The notes under the pieces were generated by a model that searched no databases, was not told the origin of the DNA, and saw only the letters and a list, made by a program, of their open reading frames with translations. The position numbers were made by a program, and so were the translations under genes. A stretch of 64,000 nucleotides of DNA from a virus: IMG/VR virus record IMGVR_UViG_3300031463_000001, positions 32,001-96,000 of that record. One strand, 5' to 3'. Positions 53,120-64,000 of the stretch are shown here, in pieces (positions within the stretch are counted from its first letter, which is position 1; the number at the start of each line of letters is the position of its first letter).

Positions 53120-53932
53120 ATGAAAAAACTTATAAAATTAATAAAAGAAGGTAAGATAAATATTGGAGAAATATTAAAAAATCCTTTAATATTAAAGAGT
53201 TACAAATGGGAAGATGTTGAAGCATATGGAAAAGAAGTACTTGAAAGAACCCAAAAAACTGAAAAAGAATTAGAAGAAACCTTAACTGAAGCGTGGGAAA
53301 AATATGGTAATGAATATTTTTTAATTCCAATTGAGGAGTTGGGTTTAAATGAGTCTGTAATTAGATTACTTAAAAGTGAAGGAATTAAGAATGTAAGTGA
53401 ATTAGCTTCTCTTACTGAGGATGATTTAAGAAATGTAGTGTATCTATCTGAAAAAACTATAGATCTTATAAAAGAAAAATTGAAAGAAATGGGATTAGAA
53501 CTAGGAGAAGGAAAAGAGTTTGATGTTGAAAAAATGAATCCCTATAGAATAAATATCAAATTTGAGGAGTTATTGCATAATAAAGATGAAGAAAGGGCTA
53601 CAAAACTTTTACCTTACATAGATAAACCAGACTTATTAGTTAATTATGCAATTAATTTTAATACTAAACTACCCCCAGAACAAGAACAAATAGTTGCTAA
53701 AAATCCTTATGCTTCATTAGCTTATGCACTTAAAGTATTAAAAGATAGATTTATTCTGGGAGAACCTTCAATAGTAAAAATGTATGATGAGATGAGAAGA
53801 AAGATGCCCCAAAAAGGAGAAGAAAACCTAATGGCTACTATACAGGCTCTTATTCATGAATATTTTATAATGCTAAATTCAGTAGGTAAGCTGGAAGATT
53901 TTATGAAAGATTATCGGAATCTTTTTCATTAA
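53120..53932 (+). CDS. Chimeric protein: duplicated N-module + RNA polymerase alpha-CTD-like domain + repeat-family domain
   Basis: IPIEELGLNESVIRLLKSEGIKNVSELASLTEDDL...IKEKLKEMGLEL matches the alpha-CTD pattern; C-half YALKVLKDRFILGE...GKLEDFMKDY. Confidence 0.8.
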   Translation: MKKLIKLIKEGKINIGEILKNPLILKSYKWEDVEAYGKEVLERTQKTEKELEETLTEAWEKYGNEYFLIPIEELGLNESVIRLLKSEGIKNVSELASLTEDDLRNVVYLSEKTIDLIKEKLKEMGLELGEGKEFDVEKMNPYRINIKFEELLHNKDEERATKLLPYIDKPDLLVNYAINFNTKLPPEQEQIVAKNPYASLAYALKVLKDRFILGEPSIVKMYDEMRRKMPQKGEENLMATIQALIHEYFIMLNSVGKLEDFMKDYRNLFH

Positions 53933-56302: not shown

Positions 56303-56708
56303 TTTGCGAAAAAGCTTCTAATAAAAAATAAAGGTATTAAGATTTAAGATTAATAATCTAAGAAATAATAATAATAATAATAAATAATAAATAATAATAT
56401 ATATAAATAAAAGATTTAAAGATTAATGATTTAACGATAATCGAAGACGACTCCACCCACTTCCACTTAATTCTCACTTACCCACTCACCTACTCTTATC
56501 TTAAACTGCTTGTCGAACTCGATTTAATTGAATTATGATGGTCGGACTATCGAAGGGTTTCGTCCCTAGAGAATGCCGACCTTTTTTTATTTAAGGGCAA
56601 AAATTTCCGAGTTTAGTTGTAAAAATATTCTTGGTCCGAAGGATAATGAGTTTAAGAATCTGGAAATTCGAAAGCCCAATTTTTTAATAAAATTTTTGTA
56701 AATAATTT

Positions 56709-58097
56709 ATGATTAGTTTGAATGTAGGTAATGTTGATACTACAATAAAAGATGCTCCTATTGAAGTAATTAAAGCGCTTGATGAAGCTTTATCTATAGA
56801 AGTTCCAGGTGCATTTTTTGCTAAAAACAAGATTAATTATTTTTGGGATGGTAAGAAACATTTATATTCAGTTAAGAAAGGAACTTTTCCTACAGGGTGT
56901 ATTCGTAGAGTTTTAAATGTGTTAAACCGAATGGGGTACGAATACCAAATAGAAGATTTAAGAGAAATACCCACTCAACTAGAACGACCTCTTTATTTAA
57001 AAGCTCACCTAAGAGATTATCAAGAACAAGCCATAGATACTTTAATTAATCGACAACGAGGAGTTGTACAACTAGCTACAGGAGGAGGAAAAAGTTTGAT
57101 ATTAGCGGGTTTATGCTCCAAATTAAATTTACCCACTTTAGTATTAACCCACAGACAGGAATTAATGTATCAACTAGAAGAAACCTTTATAAAAAATTTG
57201 AGAGGTAAAGGTTCAAGAAAACCCTTAATAGGTTTAGTAGGTGATGGCAATACTAAATGGGGTCATATAACCATAGGGATGATGCAAGCTATGGATGTAA
57301 AGAAATATATTAAAGAGTTGAGTAAGATTAAGATGGTTTTGGTGGACGAATGTCATCATTTACCTTGTAATACTATGGTAGACATAATGAAGTATTTAGA
57401 TAATGCATATTATAGGTTTGGTGTTTCAGCTACTAGTTTTAGAGAGGATGGGATGGATTTAATGATTGAAGCTTACCTAGCTCCTATATATTATAATCTT
57501 AGTAGTGCAGAGTTAATAAGGATGGGTTATTTGAGTCCTATTAAAGTTTTTTTTATTCCATTTAATGATACCAAAACTTATAAAAATGATTTAACTTATG
57601 TTCAATTATATAGTGAGGCAATAGAACAAAACGAAAAGAGGAATAATTTGATAGTTGAGGTGGTGAAGAGAATATTGGCTAAAAACAAAACTTGTTTAGT
57701 GGCTGTATCGAGGATAGAACATGGAAAGATATTAACTCAAAAAATTAAATCTTTTTATCCTGAAGTTGAATTTGTGGAAGGGAAAGATAAAAGTGAAAGA
57801 AGAAAAAAGATTATTAAAAAATTAAATTTAAAGGAAATTAAATGTGTAGTATGTACTACAGTTTTTGGAGAAGGGATAGATATACCTACCCTTGAAGTAT
57901 TAGTTTCTGCTAAAGCTCAAGATAGTGGTATTGATGCCCTTCAACTTGCGGGTAGAGTAATGAGACGAACAGAAGATAAGATTGAGGGTTGGGTGATAGA
58001 TTTTTTTGATATGCATCATAAGTTTTTTAGGCGACATGCAATAAAAAGAAAAAAAATATTTAAAGAAGAAAAATTTGAGGTTGTGGAGGCTTTATGA
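56709..58097 (+). CDS. Superfamily 2 DNA helicase (UvsW/XPB-like DExH)
   Basis: LRDYQ, ATGGGKS, VDECHH, SAT, GEGIDIP, QLAGRVMR. Confidence 0.9.
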   Translation: MISLNVGNVDTTIKDAPIEVIKALDEALSIEVPGAFFAKNKINYFWDGKKHLYSVKKGTFPTGCIRRVLNVLNRMGYEYQIEDLREIPTQLERPLYLKAHLRDYQEQAIDTLINRQRGVVQLATGGGKSLILAGLCSKLNLPTLVLTHRQELMYQLEETFIKNLRGKGSRKPLIGLVGDGNTKWGHITIGMMQAMDVKKYIKELSKIKMVLVDECHHLPCNTMVDIMKYLDNAYYRFGVSATSFREDGMDLMIEAYLAPIYYNLSSAELIRMGYLSPIKVFFIPFNDTKTYKNDLTYVQLYSEAIEQNEKRNNLIVEVVKRILAKNKTCLVAVSRIEHGKILTQKIKSFYPEVEFVEGKDKSERRKKIIKKLNLKEIKCVVCTTVFGEGIDIPTLEVLVSAKAQDSGIDALQLAGRVMRRTEDKIEGWVIDFFDMHHKFFRRHAIKRKKIFKEEKFEVVEAL

Positions 58098-58345
58098 AAT
58101 ATATGATAAAAGATTTTGAAAATAATATTTTGTTTAAGAGTGATTTTTTAGATGATTTAATTCCTTTAAATATGGAGGGTAGGTTGTTTGTGGAAGATAG
58201 TGAAGTGTGTTATGTTTATACGTTTGAATCTACTACAATTAGAAGTGTGTTGATGAAAATTAGAAACAAAATAAAAAATATTGAGGTTCGAAAGCATAAT
58301 CTCGAAAAAGAAATGAAATTGTTGGAAGTTTTGGAAACTTTGTAA
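58094..58345 (+). CDS. Hypothetical protein
   Basis: GGAGG RBS, ATGA-coupled to the helicase. Confidence 0.55.
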   Translation: MKYMIKDFENNILFKSDFLDDLIPLNMEGRLFVEDSEVCYVYTFESTTIRSVLMKIRNKIKNIEVRKHNLEKEMKLLEVLETL

Positions 58346-58374
58346 GTTTGTCGAGATTGATTTCTTTAAAGAAG

Positions 58375-59017
58375 ATGAATATAGCTGATTTATTAAAAAA
58401 TCCAGAAAAACTAAATGATGTTTTTAGAGATGTATTAGATAAGGGAGATAAAGAATCAGCTAGGATATTACTTCCATATGTAAGTCCTTTTTTTTTATTA
58501 TAAGTATTTAGAACAGCTTGGAGAAAGGGTTCCCCTTGAATTCGAATCTAAATTATTTGGTTTGTCAGATTTTTCAAAAGGAGGATATGAGTATGTAAAT
58601 GTTATTTCAGGGAAGGATTTATATGATTCTTTTCTTAAAGATTGGGGAGATAAATATGCAAATAAAATAGTTAATGCATTAGCTAATTCTTATGATTATG
58701 GGCCTCTAATAGAGGGTGCAGTTAAAACAACTAAAGAATATTCAGATCGAGTTTTTTTACCTCTTTTGAATTATGATTTTGATAGGACTAGTGATTCTTG
58801 GGGAACATTATTAACAATTCTTTTAACTAATTATAATTACAGATTACCTCCGGAGATATTATCTAAATTGGGTAAAGATGATTTAAAAGCATTAAAGAAA
58901 TATTTAGGAGTTTATGAGAAATTAGTAGAGGAAAGAGAGGGGGATAGATATGCGGAAGATTCATATGACTTAATTAATGAATCTTATAAGTATTTGAAAA
59001 ATAATTTAAGAAAGTAA
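58375..59017 (+). pseudogene. Tagged gene split by a T9 homopolymer frameshift
   Basis: MNIADLLKNP...YVSPFFLL* (58375-58503); removing one T from 58488-58496 joins it in frame to ORF 58562-59017. Confidence 0.75.
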
Positions 59018-59021
59018 AAGA

Positions 59022-59069
59022 GTGAACATAGGTGAATTCTTAAAAGATCATTCAGAGGTAGAATTATGA
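59022..59069 (+). other. Empty repeat-gene cassette (mini-ORF MNIGEFLKDHSEVEL)
   Basis: GTG AAC ATA GGT GAA TTC TTA AAA GAT CAT TCA GAG GTA GAA TTA TGA: family first codons fused in frame to family last codons, with ATGA overlap to 59066. Confidence 0.75.
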
Positions 59070-59626
59070 ACATAGAAGATTTATTAAAACATCCAGAAAA
59101 AGCAAGAACGTTTTTGGACAAGGCTATTTTTGGTGGAAACAAAAAATTAGCTGAAATTTTAATTCCAATAGTTAAACATCCTTATTCAACTTATTTATAT
59201 GCAAAAGAAATAGTTAAGGGAAAAATAAAAGATGAATGGGAATATATTATTGCTCAAGATCCTTATGCTTCTCTTGATTATGCCTTTAACATTCTAAAAG
59301 GTCCATTTCCAAAAGGAGAAGATGCAATTGCTAGAGATTCATATACTTCTTATAATTATGCTGTTATTTTAGAAAGACCGTGGCCAAAGGGAGAGGATGT
59401 TATTGCTAGAGATCCAAGATTTGCTTATTATTATGCTAGATATGTGTTGAAGGATAGATTTCCAAAAGGAGAAAAAGAAATTATTAGTAGTGAGATTACT
59501 GATCCGGGTAATGATTTTGGTGAAAATGGTGAATCAGGTTTTTCTTCTTATGTTAAGTTTTTGAAATCAATAAATAAATTAGACGAATTCTTAAAAGATC
59601 ATCCGGAGGTAAAAGATAGAGTATGA
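59066..59626 (+). CDS. 26-aa repeat family protein
   Basis: Family caps; insertion in C-cap loop. Confidence 0.9.
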   Translation: MNIEDLLKHPEKARTFLDKAIFGGNKKLAEILIPIVKHPYSTYLYAKEIVKGKIKDEWEYIIAQDPYASLDYAFNILKGPFPKGEDAIARDSYTSYNYAVILERPWPKGEDVIARDPRFAYYYARYVLKDRFPKGEKEIISSEITDPGNDFGENGESGFSSYVKFLKSINKLDEFLKDHPEVKDRV

Positions 59627-60087
59627 ATATAGAAGATTTATTAAAACATCCAGAAAAAGCACAAATGGCTTTGCGAGAAGCTATTTGGAATAATGATGCA
59701 AAATTAGCAGAAGCTTTAATACCAATAGCAAGAGATCCACATTTAACTCTTAATTATGCTCAAAATATAGTTAAGGGAAAAGTTAAAATTGAGTTTGAAG
59801 ATATTATAGCCCGAGATGGAGAAGCTTCTTTTTATTATGCTTATGAAGTCTTAAATGGTCCCTTTCCTAGAGGAGAATATGCAATTGCTGAAAATGAAGA
59901 TCTTTCATTAGATTATGCGATTAAAGTATTAAAGGATAGATTTCCAAAAGGAGAAGAAGCAATTATATATGTAGCTTTAAAGCATGATGATGATGTATAT
60001 TTATGGAGATATACGGATTTTCTTAAAGAGATTGGTAAACTAGACGAATTCTTAAAAGATCATCCTGAGGTAAAAGATATAGAATGA
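59623..60087 (+). CDS. 26-aa repeat family protein
   Basis: Family caps and repeats. Confidence 0.9.
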   Translation: MNIEDLLKHPEKAQMALREAIWNNDAKLAEALIPIARDPHLTLNYAQNIVKGKVKIEFEDIIARDGEASFYYAYEVLNGPFPRGEYAIAENEDLSLDYAIKVLKDRFPKGEEAIIYVALKHDDDVYLWRYTDFLKEIGKLDEFLKDHPEVKDIE

Positions 60088-60608
60088 ACATAGGTGATTT
60101 ACTAAAAGAAGGAGCGGATAGTGTTTTCGATAAAGCAATAAAAGAAAAAAATAAAGAGTTAGCAGATTTTCTAATTAAGTTTATAAAAGATCCTTTTCTT
60201 CTTTTCGATTATGCAGCTAAATTTAATGAAAAATTAAAACCTGAATTTGAAGATATTATTGCTAAAAATTGGGATACATCCTTTTATTATGCACTTCATT
60301 TTAAAAATCCTTTTCCTAAAGGTGAAGATATAATGGCAAAAGATTTGTATACTGCCTATCATTATGCAGCTGATGTTTTACAAGGACCATTTCCAAAAGG
60401 TGAACCTATAATTTCTCAATTTCCATATTCATCATATTATTATGCTAAAAGGATATTGCATGATAGATTTCCAAAAGGAGAAAAAGCAATTATTGATAGC
60501 AAAGATCAAGAAAATGATGAAGATTATTTTAGACTCTATATTAAATTTTTAAAATCCATTAATAAACTAGATGAATTCTTAAAAGATCATCCAGAAGTTA
60601 AATTATGA
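60084..60608 (+). CDS. 26-aa repeat family protein
   Basis: Family caps and repeats. Confidence 0.9.
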   Translation: MNIGDLLKEGADSVFDKAIKEKNKELADFLIKFIKDPFLLFDYAAKFNEKLKPEFEDIIAKNWDTSFYYALHFKNPFPKGEDIMAKDLYTAYHYAADVLQGPFPKGEPIISQFPYSSYYYAKRILHDRFPKGEKAIIDSKDQENDEDYFRLYIKFLKSINKLDEFLKDHPEVKL

Positions 60609-61795
60609 ATATAGAAGATTTGTTAAGGGATCCAAATAGGGTTAAAGAATTATTAGATGAAGTTATTAATAATGGAAACAAAAAATTAGCTAAAGTTTTA
60701 CTTCCATTAGTTGAAAAAGAGTCAACTAGATATGGTTACATAGAGTCATTATTGAAGGGTAGAGAAATTGTAGCTGATTTCGAATCACGATTACCTGTTT
60801 TGATTAAACAGTATAAGGCTCACAATCCAGAATTATCTGAAAGTGAAGCCGAAGCTAAGATTCGTGAATTGAATCAATATGATCCAACGGGTTTAAAAGC
60901 TACATATACACCCTGGATTGTAAAACAGTATTTGGAAGATTCATCATTCGATTTGGATTTAGCTAAACAAGTTTTGAAGGATCTTGAAAAGGTTGTTTTA
61001 CATAAGAAACTACCTGCAGGATTCGATATTGGAAAGTTTAACTTAAATGAATTGAAATCGAAACTTCAACCAATACTTGAGCCAATTGAAGAGTCGGAAA
61101 AGGAGAAGGAAGAGATTAAAAAAGAAGGTCCAATAGGTCAATCATTAATCTCTGAAGAGGGTTATGAAATTATTGAAGTTACTGATCCAAAAGATAGTGT
61201 AAGATTCTGTAAAAAATATCATATTAGGTCTTGGTGTGTAAAGGATTTGGAGTATGCAGAGTTTTACGTTCCTCTCTACTTCGTTTTAAAGAATGGTTCG
61301 CCAAAAGGTGCATGGTCAGAATATGATAAAAAGCTCAGTAATCGACAAGATTTAGATGAGTGGGATCTTGATGAAAGAGATTTTATAGCAAAACTATTAA
61401 GAAAAGTTAGACCTAATTTAACAATAAAGACAAAAGAAGAAATGAAAAGGGAAGCTTTGAATTCTCCGGAGAAAGCTTATAATTATGCATTTAAGGTTAA
61501 AGGAAGATTTCCAGAAGGAGAACCTATAATAGCAAAAAGTCCTAAATATGCTTATTATTATGCAAGAGATGTTATTAAAGAAAGATTTCCTAAAGGGGAG
61601 CCTGCTATAGCAAAAGATTTTTATTTTGCGTGTCTGTATGCAAAATTTGTTATTAAAGGAAGATTTTTAGAAGGAGAAGCTGTAATAATAAATTCAAATT
61701 ATTTTGATGATTATGTTGAGTTTCTTAAAGAAATAAATAAACTAGATGAGTTCCTAAAAGATCACCCAGAAGTTAAAAATTACAAGTCTTTTTAA
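60605..61795 (+). CDS. Repeat family protein with a large inserted domain
   Basis: N-cap, then an unrelated ~240-aa insert (DPTG.K.TY..WI...Y; SWCV...Y.PLYFV.KNG), then repeats and C-cap. Confidence 0.85.
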   Translation: MNIEDLLRDPNRVKELLDEVINNGNKKLAKVLLPLVEKESTRYGYIESLLKGREIVADFESRLPVLIKQYKAHNPELSESEAEAKIRELNQYDPTGLKATYTPWIVKQYLEDSSFDLDLAKQVLKDLEKVVLHKKLPAGFDIGKFNLNELKSKLQPILEPIEESEKEKEEIKKEGPIGQSLISEEGYEIIEVTDPKDSVRFCKKYHIRSWCVKDLEYAEFYVPLYFVLKNGSPKGAWSEYDKKLSNRQDLDEWDLDERDFIAKLLRKVRPNLTIKTKEEMKREALNSPEKAYNYAFKVKGRFPEGEPIIAKSPKYAYYYARDVIKERFPKGEPAIAKDFYFACLYAKFVIKGRFLEGEAVIINSNYFDDYVEFLKEINKLDEFLKDHPEVKNYKSF

Positions 61796-61872
61796 AATTA
61801 AGTTTCTTCCATCTTAAGGGGGAAATTCTTTTCTATTTTTGTGTATAATAATCTATTATTGAAGGAGAAAAA

Positions 61873-63231: not shown

Positions 63232-63392
63232 TGATTTTGATATTGAGTATACTAATAGGAATCTTGATAGGATCATTATGTTATAGAAAAGGTTTTAAAG
63301 ATGGAGGACATAAAGCAATAGAAATTTATAAACAGGAAATTTTTAAGGATGATGATGAGATAATCATTATGCATAAAGGAGGGTTTAAATGA
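63225..63392 (+). CDS. Small membrane protein (not in ORF track)
   Basis: MVMILILSILIGILIGSLCYRKGFKDG...; overlaps dnaB stop and queE start. Confidence 0.55.
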   Translation: MVMILILSILIGILIGSLCYRKGFKDGGHKAIEIYKQEIFKDDDEIIIMHKGGFK

Positions 63393-64000
63393 TGCAAAAA
63401 TATAATGTAGTAGAAATATTTGGTCCTACTATTCAAGGAGAAGGTTGTTTAATAGGAAAGAAGGTAAGTTTTATAAGATTTTGGGGATGCGATTATAGAT
63501 GTGCTTTTTGTGATACTAAGTATGCTTATGAAGAAAAAAATTATATGAAAATGACTGTTTCATCTATAATTAAGAAACTTGAAAAAAATTATACTTCTAC
63601 AGTAGTAATTACAGGAGGAAATCCTTGCATATATGATTTAACTGAATTAATAAAAGAATTAAAAGAAAGAGGATTTTTTGTTTGTGTAGAAACTCAAGGA
63701 AGTCTTTTTCCTGATTGGTTAAGTTTAGTTGATTTAGTAGTAATTTCACCTAAACCTCCTTCAGCAAAAACAAAAAATTTTGATATTAAAAATTTTGGAA
63801 TAAGTTCGAGATATTTACTTAATTACATAATTAAACCTGTAGTAGATATAAATAATAAAGAGGATATGAAATGGTTGGATAAATTATATGAAGAATTAGG
63901 AGAAAGTACTCTTTTTTATATTCAATTATGCACCTATAAAAAAGATAATCAAATTTCATTATTAAAAAGGTATAGAAAACTTGTTGAATATGTTATGAAA
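63389..64000 (+). CDS. queE: 7-carboxy-7-deazaguanine synthase QueE (radical SAM), runs off window end
   Basis: AGGAGG RBS; MMQKYNVVEIFGPTIQGEG...FIRFWGCDYRCAFCDTKY (CxxxCxxC), VITGGNP, VETQGS, ISPKPPS. Confidence 0.9.
   Translation, partial: MMQKYNVVEIFGPTIQGEGCLIGKKVSFIRFWGCDYRCAFCDTKYAYEEKNYMKMTVSSIIKKLEKNYTSTVVITGGNPCIYDLTELIKELKERGFFVCVETQGSLFPDWLSLVDLVVISPKPPSAKTKNFDIKNFGISSRYLLNYIIKPVVDINNKEDMKWLDKLYEELGESTLFYIQLCTYKKDNQISLLKRYRKLVEYVMK

Follow-up and report, generated by a model that had tools for sequence, protein, structure and literature searches.

The locus studied here raises a simple question: how did an open reading frame of only 15 codons plus a stop, at positions 59022-59069 (the mini-frame), come to stand at the head of an array of full-length genes? 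The window, i.e., the whole stretch of 64,000 nucleotides that was analysed, comprises bases 32001-96000 of a 124,898-bp virus record of 28% G+C, estimated to be 76% complete, and geneA, the mini-frame, the array genes Fa to Fd and the crossover intervals described below lie on its + strand. A first-pass annotation, made from the letters of the window alone, had read the mini-frame as the start and the end of a family gene fused in frame, left behind when a gene was lost as a cassette. Our analysis leads us to conclude that the mini-frame is very probably a scar of recombination between short repeats in a tandem array of paralogues rather than the product of a dedicated cassette system. It represents the ordinary turnover of a tandem gene family, unusually cleanly preserved.

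The genes of this family begin with MNIxDLLKDP... and end in ...KLDEFLKDHPEVK, and they are arranged head to tail with ATGA stop/start overlaps; 22 open reading frames of the genome carry the tail motif, in ATGA-joined arrays. Four family genes follow the mini-frame, namely Fa (59066-59626, 186 aa), whose start overlaps the mini-frame stop (ATGA), Fb (59623-60087, 154 aa), Fc (60084-60608, 174 aa) and Fd (60605-61795, 396 aa), which is the last of the array and is followed by a terminator-like hairpin at 61801-61827. The family encodes helical-repeat proteins; for the member at 60084, AlphaFold predicts a fold made up of helices throughout (13 helices, mean pLDDT 94.7). As to identity, the family had no Pfam match above the cut-off, no PHROG of known function and no PDB sequence name, and a Foldseek comparison with the PDB was uninformative. 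A family profile retrieved 5425 representative proteins at E <= 0.001 from a library of 1.84 billion proteins, many of them long and multi-repeat, which means that the repeat is widespread but unnamed. Some proteins of the repeat family reach 2253 aa with 22 matched stretches, and P0137 and P0159 are read-through fusions of two complete start-to-tail units. A search of IMG/VR with the family alignment returned the L004 contig only, where the family is confined to the locus discussed here.

Several further features of the family deserve mention. The use of the same codon, observed over expected, is 1.26 at gene starts, 1.08 at gene tails and 1.14 in gene interiors; since these ratios are barely above those of the interiors, the gene ends are not clearly homogenised at the DNA level, and the idea of such homogenisation was dropped because the excess is weak. 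Family tails (e.g., at 59034, 59585, 60046 and 60573) keep GAATTC, an EcoRI-type palindrome. The Phe codon of the tail is TTC in 16 of 19 genes, and interior Phe columns favour TTT (10 TTT to 5 TTC in one, 13 to 5 in another). Elsewhere in the window, a 270-aa protein (53120-53932) combines a family-like start (KINIGEILKNP) and tail with a match to the RNA polymerase alpha C-terminal domain, a helix-hairpin-helix domain (PF03118, E 4.9e-09).

The mini-frame reads GTG AAC ATA GGT followed by GAA TTC TTA AAA GAT CAT TCA GAG GTA GAA TTA TGA, which translates as (V/M)NIG-EFLKDHSEVEL and a stop; that is, four start codons are joined in frame to eleven tail codons plus the stop. The first part (59022-59033) is the remnant of a family gene start, the first 14 nt from the GTG being identical at 13 positions to ATGAACATAGGTGA at 60084 and matching L006:1481 equally well. 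The second part, EFLKDHSEVEL and the stop (59034-59069), is the remnant of a family gene tail, which agrees at 32 of 36 nt (four mismatches) with each of eight family tails of the class that ends in ...VKL before the stop, and has a Pro to Ser and a Lys to Glu replacement of its own. When the window was searched with the start motif at up to two mismatches, 8 matches were obtained against 0.62 expected and a maximum of 3 in shuffled sequence. The tail 18-mer GAATTCTTAAAAGATCAT, present as an exact copy in the mini-frame, occurred 24 times when up to three mismatches were allowed (1.13 expected), and 8 of these copies were exact. The in-frame fusion of a family start to a family tail, as first proposed, is borne out by matches far beyond chance. 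The mini-frame is the sole site in the 124,898-bp genome where the start motif and the tail motif stand 12 nt apart, and a pattern search of IMG/VR for the form of this arrangement with an ATG start gave no hits. The ribosome-binding site of the next gene, GAGGT (59055-59059), is found 6 nt 5' of the ATG at 59066, and the ATGA overlap between the mini-frame stop and that start is intact, as the first-pass annotation had stated; the start codon of the mini-frame, given there as ATG (Met), is in fact GTG.

The evidence from reads consists throughout of contigs, which drop rare variants. A Logan contig of 5857 nt from run X1, the probable source of the record, covers 56700-59101 without differences or gaps and hence crosses the joint. 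It was built from the same reads by a different assembler, and its independence is one of method only; even so, the collapse of repeats during assembly, raised at the outset as the observation that could overturn the fusion, does not hold. Runs X2 and X3 cover only 0.09 and 0.06 of the stretch, and the parts without coverage were not counted as evidence. Most joints found in these two runs at 80% likeness are cross-matches between paralogues and were left out.

To what gene does the start half of the mini-frame belong? Upstream lies geneA (58375-59017), which is no standard member of the family, since it combines a family-type start (MNIADLLKNPEK) with an unrelated body, and which ends in ...NESYKYLKNNLRK before its stop; a 4-nt spacer, AAGA (59018-59021), separates its TAA from the mini-frame. 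In the window, geneA meets a stop after 42 codons from 58375 and is followed by a 151-aa open reading frame (58562-59017) that ends in ...SYKYLKNNLRK and a stop, a run of nine T (T9, 58488-58496) splitting the gene into 58375-58503 and 58484/58562-59017. P0122, P0123 and the geneA copies of L004 and L006 are uninterrupted across this break (...LLPYVDPFFYYKYLEQ...), and the run is T8 in L006 and L007, which indicates that the T9 of the window has one T too many, although the X1 contig also has T9. The run could mark a real pseudogene, an error common to both assemblies or a transcriptional-slippage site that restores the frame. A search for homologues of the middle open reading frame of geneA among 5.8 billion proteins gave three hits, the window's own and two others.

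GeneA is present in L004, a 43.7-kb IMG/VR contig, and in L006 and L007, two metagenome records. As 2 differences in 1039 aligned bases are all that distinguishes L006 from L007, the two are counted as one haplotype, and the comparison comprises only two independent relative haplotypes (L004 and L006/L007). The nearest relative, P0001, has a helicase that is 97% identical. IMG/VR searches with the window geneA and with P0122 returned nothing, nor did blastn against the phage GenBank collection, and no GTDB genome was found with the geneA alignment. An IMG/VR search with the helicase yielded only loci of 26% identity (L001-L003), which were left out of the comparison.

In the relatives that were compared, geneA ends at the same point as in the window (...YKYLRKNLRR and stop in L004, ...YKYLKNKLLKK and stop in L006/L007), and in L004, L006 and L007 alike a family ATG follows exactly 5 nt after the geneA TAA (TAA-AATT-ATGAAY ATA G..). 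At the same offset L004 has ATGAATATAGGTGA and the window has TAA-AAGA-GTGAAC ATA GGT, with two of the four spacer positions changed from the AATT of the relatives. Given this natural end of geneA and the family start 5 nt further on, the mini-frame is the beginning of the gene after geneA. That gene is 188 aa long in L004 and is an Fb-like gene in L006/L007. A search of related genomes for a full gene at the site, recommended when the mini-frame was first described, has therefore found a family gene at the same offset in both haplotypes, and in that sense the objection that no relative has a filled site does not apply.

The relatives show other peculiarities at this place. Their geneA (L004:6556-7551, L006:2023-3003) is fused in frame to an upstream family-like part, MNPEMEFKEA...FLKKINKYDEYLGDQ, through a linker rich in Lys, Glu and Gln; geneA of the window has its own ATG. 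The gene after geneA in L006 (3007-3060) and L007 (1294-1347) contains a run of six A where Fb of the window has five (CCAGAAAAAAGC vs CCAGAAAAAGC), which breaks its frame after 23 codons. In addition, geneA of L007 has T5 where L006 has T4, giving a frameshift at L006 position 2613.

The joint itself can be placed closely. Start-type letters extend as far as GGT (59033), and tail-only letters begin with the A of GAA at 59036 and include TTC, GAT CAT, GAG GTA and the stop. This places the joint in TGA/GA (59033-59035), outside the shared TTAAAAGAT and immediately upstream of it. Microhomology there amounts to 2-3 nt only, and the 9-nt match adjoins it. The repeats of gene start and gene tail are in the same codon phase (GAT TTA TTA AAA GAT vs GAA TTC TTA AAA GAT), and it is equally possible that a heteroduplex formed across the whole of this 13-of-15 imperfect repeat and was resolved to the tail version. 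An exact repeat (T)TAAAAGAT(C) of at least 9 nt is found at both gene ends in 11 of the 20 family genes tested and in none of the four genes of the array that follows the mini-frame (59066, 59623, 60084 and 60605). In exact form, the in-frame repeat that the first reading had ascribed to both ends of family genes is thus confined to 11 genes of 20 and is absent from the very array in which the mini-frame lies.

The mini-frame is one of several rearrangements at a locus with fixed flanks, formed on the left by the helicase together with an 83-aa gene and on the right by DnaB, between which gene number and order differ. Between these flanks the window has geneA, the mini-frame, Fa, Fb, Fc and Fd; L006/L007 have F209, Fc, geneA (fused to the upstream family-like part) and Fb'; and L004 has F1, F2, F3, F4, geneA, F5 and F6. 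The position of Fc relative to geneA also varies: it is downstream in the window and L004 and upstream in L006, whose copy is 96% identical to that of the window. From informative sites, a start x start crossover relative to L006 was mapped to 58398-58411: to the left of this interval the window tracks F209 of L006 and its upstream DNA, and to the right it tracks the internal geneA start of L006, with about 1.5 kb (L006 855-2365) present in L006 and missing from the window. A tail x tail crossover is found inside TTAAAAGA, at 60053-60062 in the Fb tail, its partner lying at 61755-61764 in the Fd tail. Fb' of L007 bears the last residues of Fd and the DNA downstream of it, which means that Fc and the Fd body are absent there; similarly, record 20 of the X3 contigs bridges the end of geneA to the Fd tail and DnaB. 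The L006/L007 copy of Fb is also two repeat units shorter than that of the window, lacking 81 nt and 78 nt (27 and 26 codons) in frame, one unit each, at gaps flanked by GAGAT and GGAGAA repeats of 5-6 nt. Downstream of DnaB, at 63389-64000 of the window and at L007:3203-3889, is a radical-SAM-looking protein with the motif GCDYRC.FCDTKY, which by resemblance may be a 7-carboxy-7-deazaguanine synthase (QueE).

The exchange points thus mapped all fall within conserved blocks (start x start at 58398-58411, tail x tail at 60053-60062, start x tail at 59033-59036), and whole genes vary in presence and position among haplotypes with frames and ATGA coupling kept. The expectation that other junctions would be found at the motif proved correct for start x start and tail x tail joints; a second joint of start and tail does not occur in the genome. 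Reciprocal tail-start fusion genes were not found in the genome or the loci, where the only fusions are the read-through ones in relatives, as in distant proteins. With exchanges at the level of starts, tails and repeat units, the mini-frame appears as the extreme case of a process that acts at every scale in the family.

We propose that the start of the gene after geneA paired with a downstream tail end, of the same or a later gene, and that the intervening DNA was lost or, less likely, that array DNA from elsewhere was joined in at this point. A very short open frame results, since the start and tail repeats agree in phase. It may have survived since the retained tail carries the next gene's GAGGT site and ATGA overlap; both signals are observed, and their role in survival is a probable one. 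General recombination or replication slippage would suffice as machinery, with no need for a site-specific recombinase, and start x start, tail x tail and repeat-unit recombination would account for whatever else distinguishes the locus from its relatives. All that was seen is explained by general recombination or slippage acting on the longest stretches in common, with survival of those products in which frames and ribosome sites are kept. The genome has a RecA gene (genome positions 98360-100135) and a superfamily 2 helicase (56709-58097 of the window; matches to ResIII and Helicase_C, and a weak one to UvsW_N). This RecA, which is encoded outside the window, and that at L004:13268-15232 each match the profile in two pieces (profile positions 1-67 and 66-262) although the open frame, of about 655 aa, is continuous; the gene thus looks as if split by an insertion of the intein type.

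It is less clear-cut what was joined. Fa is 56-57% identical to each of three L004 genes alike, and in the absence of a clear one-to-one partner no relative's gene can be assigned as the filled form of the mini-frame. Both blastn of geneA and Fa against L004 geneA and F5 and a MAFFT alignment show the mini-frame as about 44-56 extra bases in the window, so that it could be an insertion or replacement joint and not a simple deletion. On these alignments, the loss of one gene would fit no better than the loss of several, or than a joint made by insertion or replacement. Of the original proposal that recombination between repeats had removed a gene body, the start/tail recombination joint stands; the removal of a single gene does not follow from paralogues that are all 56-57% alike.

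Tandem multigene families evolve by unequal crossing-over, gene conversion and deletion between short direct repeats, the poxvirus "genomic accordion" being a viral case. The present family resembles them in its head-to-tail paralogues, in exchanges within conserved blocks that leave in-frame hybrids or remnants without any special enzyme, and in the variation of gene number and order between close relatives. It differs in that the conserved blocks are the first and last 12 or so codons of every gene, that these ends match in phase so that a start x tail exchange yields an "empty" in-frame gene, and that the tail also bears the ribosome site of the next gene. The classic lacI and T4 rII studies made known a class of deletions that arise between short direct repeats, by slippage or RecA-independent recombination. 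As in those, short in-phase direct repeats mark the end points here and a single hybrid copy appears to be left, and the 81-nt and 78-nt differences flanked by 5-6-nt repeats are alike at the scale of repeat units. The mini-frame differs from them in that the exact match at its joint is only 2-3 nt, beside the 9-nt match.

Could the gene ends nevertheless be more than the places where ordinary exchange happens to fall? One proposal, which we regard as unlikely, is that the start and tail peptides double as in-frame recombination joints through which the phage adds, drops, reorders and resizes some 30 helical-repeat, binder-like genes with frames and coupling unbroken; a start x tail exchange would then release genes as circles, leaving the 48-bp frame as the empty site, in what would be a coding-sequence counterpart of the cassettes described next. 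The closest parallel described is the shuffling mediated by PeSLs in T4-type phages, which Arbiol et al. (2010, PMC2839356) present as intergenic elements of about 100 bp, each a promoter with a terminator stem-loop, flanking accessory genes; gene loss is described there as leaving one chimeric repeat and circles as being formed. The likeness lies in repeats that flank non-essential phage genes, serve as preferred recombination sites and give each unit its own expression signal, and the difference in that PeSLs are intergenic, whereas the repeats here are coding, with overlapping stop and start and a ribosome site. Signals of the PeSL type are not in evidence in the array, which has 22 promoter-like sites against 28.4 expected and one terminator-like site, at the array end only.

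A stronger form of the idea, in which the gene ends are evolved recombination sites of a dedicated cassette system that excises genes, perhaps as circles, and re-inserts them as units, is by analogy conceivable and in our view distinctly improbable. In its favour are the three joints inside conserved gene ends, the position of Fc on opposite sides of geneA, the in-phase direct repeat of start and tail in 11 of 20 genes, the retention of TTC within the tail GAATTC (16 of 19) against the interior preference for TTT, and the circles formed by PeSL-flanked genes of T4-type phages (PMC2839356). The gene ends are, however, the longest stretches that paralogues share, so that homologous exchange tends to land there anyway, their same-codon ratios hardly exceed those of the interiors, and reciprocal fusions of tail and start were not found. 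Neither tyrosine (PF00589) nor serine (PF00239) recombinases occur in the 124,898-bp record, itself estimated to be 76% complete; the PF00589 search gave 0 matches there and was positive in 14 of 14 reference genomes used as control. The suggested recombinase elsewhere in the genome is accordingly missing from what the record covers.

Integron cassettes are promoterless genes in a one-directional array that are gained and lost as units through an IntI-type tyrosine recombinase acting with attC inverted repeats. The promoterless one-directional array with gain and loss of units is shared by the present locus, which differs in having no IntI-type recombinase, in joints that lie inside coding sequence and in "cassettes" that are paralogues of one family. 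Imperfect inverted repeats of the attC kind are inconsistent, with no pair in one of two ordinary junctions and one weak 10-nt pair in the other, and an 18-nt, 78% inverted pair at the mini-frame folds no better than shuffled sequence (z 0.19). Of the gene cassettes of the first-pass annotation there remains only the weak sense that entire genes are gained and lost at their conserved ends through ordinary recombination.

Another possibility, very doubtful in our opinion, is that the mini-frame has been selected as a short coupling frame or leader that passes ribosomes from geneA to the next gene through ATGA. The frame is indeed open, retains GAGGT and has its stop overlapping the following start in ATGA, and from the helicase to the array end there is no excess of terminators or promoters, which gives the region the look of one operon. 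Its own signals have decayed, however. Of the 19 family genes aligned, 18 begin with ATG and the remaining one was cut at an internal Ile; the mini-frame has GTG, and the ribosome site upstream of it is poor (AGAAAG in the window vs AGGAGG in L004). The tail Pro (19 of 19) and Lys (18 of 18), invariant in the family alignment, are replaced by Ser and Glu. Furthermore, geneA is frame-broken upstream, the next gene does not need coupling, being served by an ideally spaced ribosome site of its own, the relatives lack such a mini-frame, and no RNA structure is predicted at it, the z-score of 0.19 being that of the inverted pair above; a hairpin in the RNA at the relic start, with 78% complementarity over 18 nt, had been considered separately and was rejected on the same folding result. 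With its GTG start, altered spacer and two invariant residues replaced, the scar peptide shows no sign of use. The GAG codon that forms part of GAGGT is found at its tail position in 15 of 19 genes, and the pattern of decay fits a relic left with the sole role of carrying the translation signals of the next gene. It follows that the claim of recombination without breaking operon translation holds only for the next gene, through its own GAGGT, and not for the scar, whose own start has decayed to GTG and is not preceded by a good ribosome site.

That the frame is instead the displaced C-terminal tail of a degraded geneA, split off by a small insertion, was at first given somewhat less than even weight, on the likeness of the geneA end ...SYKYLKNNLRK to the family segment before the tail (Y..FLK.I.KL) and the frame already broken at T9, and was dropped as extremely improbable once the geneA orthologues of L004, L006 and L007 were seen to end naturally at the same point without an EFLKDH tail and with a family start 5 nt later, 10 of the 11 nt before the joint being those of a family gene start. 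A mis-join of two repeated gene ends during assembly, to which a repeat-rich region with Logan contigs breaking at family repeats (e.g., the contig end at 59101) might lend itself, is almost certainly not the origin of the mini-frame, given that a start end and a tail end have no more than 10 nt in common, which is too little to cause a k-mer mis-join, that the scar tail has substitutions seen in no other copy, and that the separately built X1 contig from the same reads crosses the joint with 0 differences. We also considered and rejected a tandem 44-nt duplication of the junction, which gives about 74% identity to the adjacent gene start with a 3-nt gap vs 32 of 36 nt without gaps to family tails, and which is further opposed by the tail-only features GAA TTC, GAT CAT, GAG GTA and stop.

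The recombination scar at 59022-59069 does not reveal a new mechanism of recombination. It is a clean record, at the sequence level, of turnover in a large phage gene family: entire genes are deleted, relocated or fused by exchange at the conserved first and last codons, and protein length is altered by one unit when internal repeats exchange. The operon stays translatable, since the ribosome site for each following gene is located in the tail before it. This turnover explains both the stepwise lengths of the family and the differing layouts of the locus in near-identical phages, and it identifies the family as accessory cargo that evolves fast and plausibly has a part in the interaction with the host.
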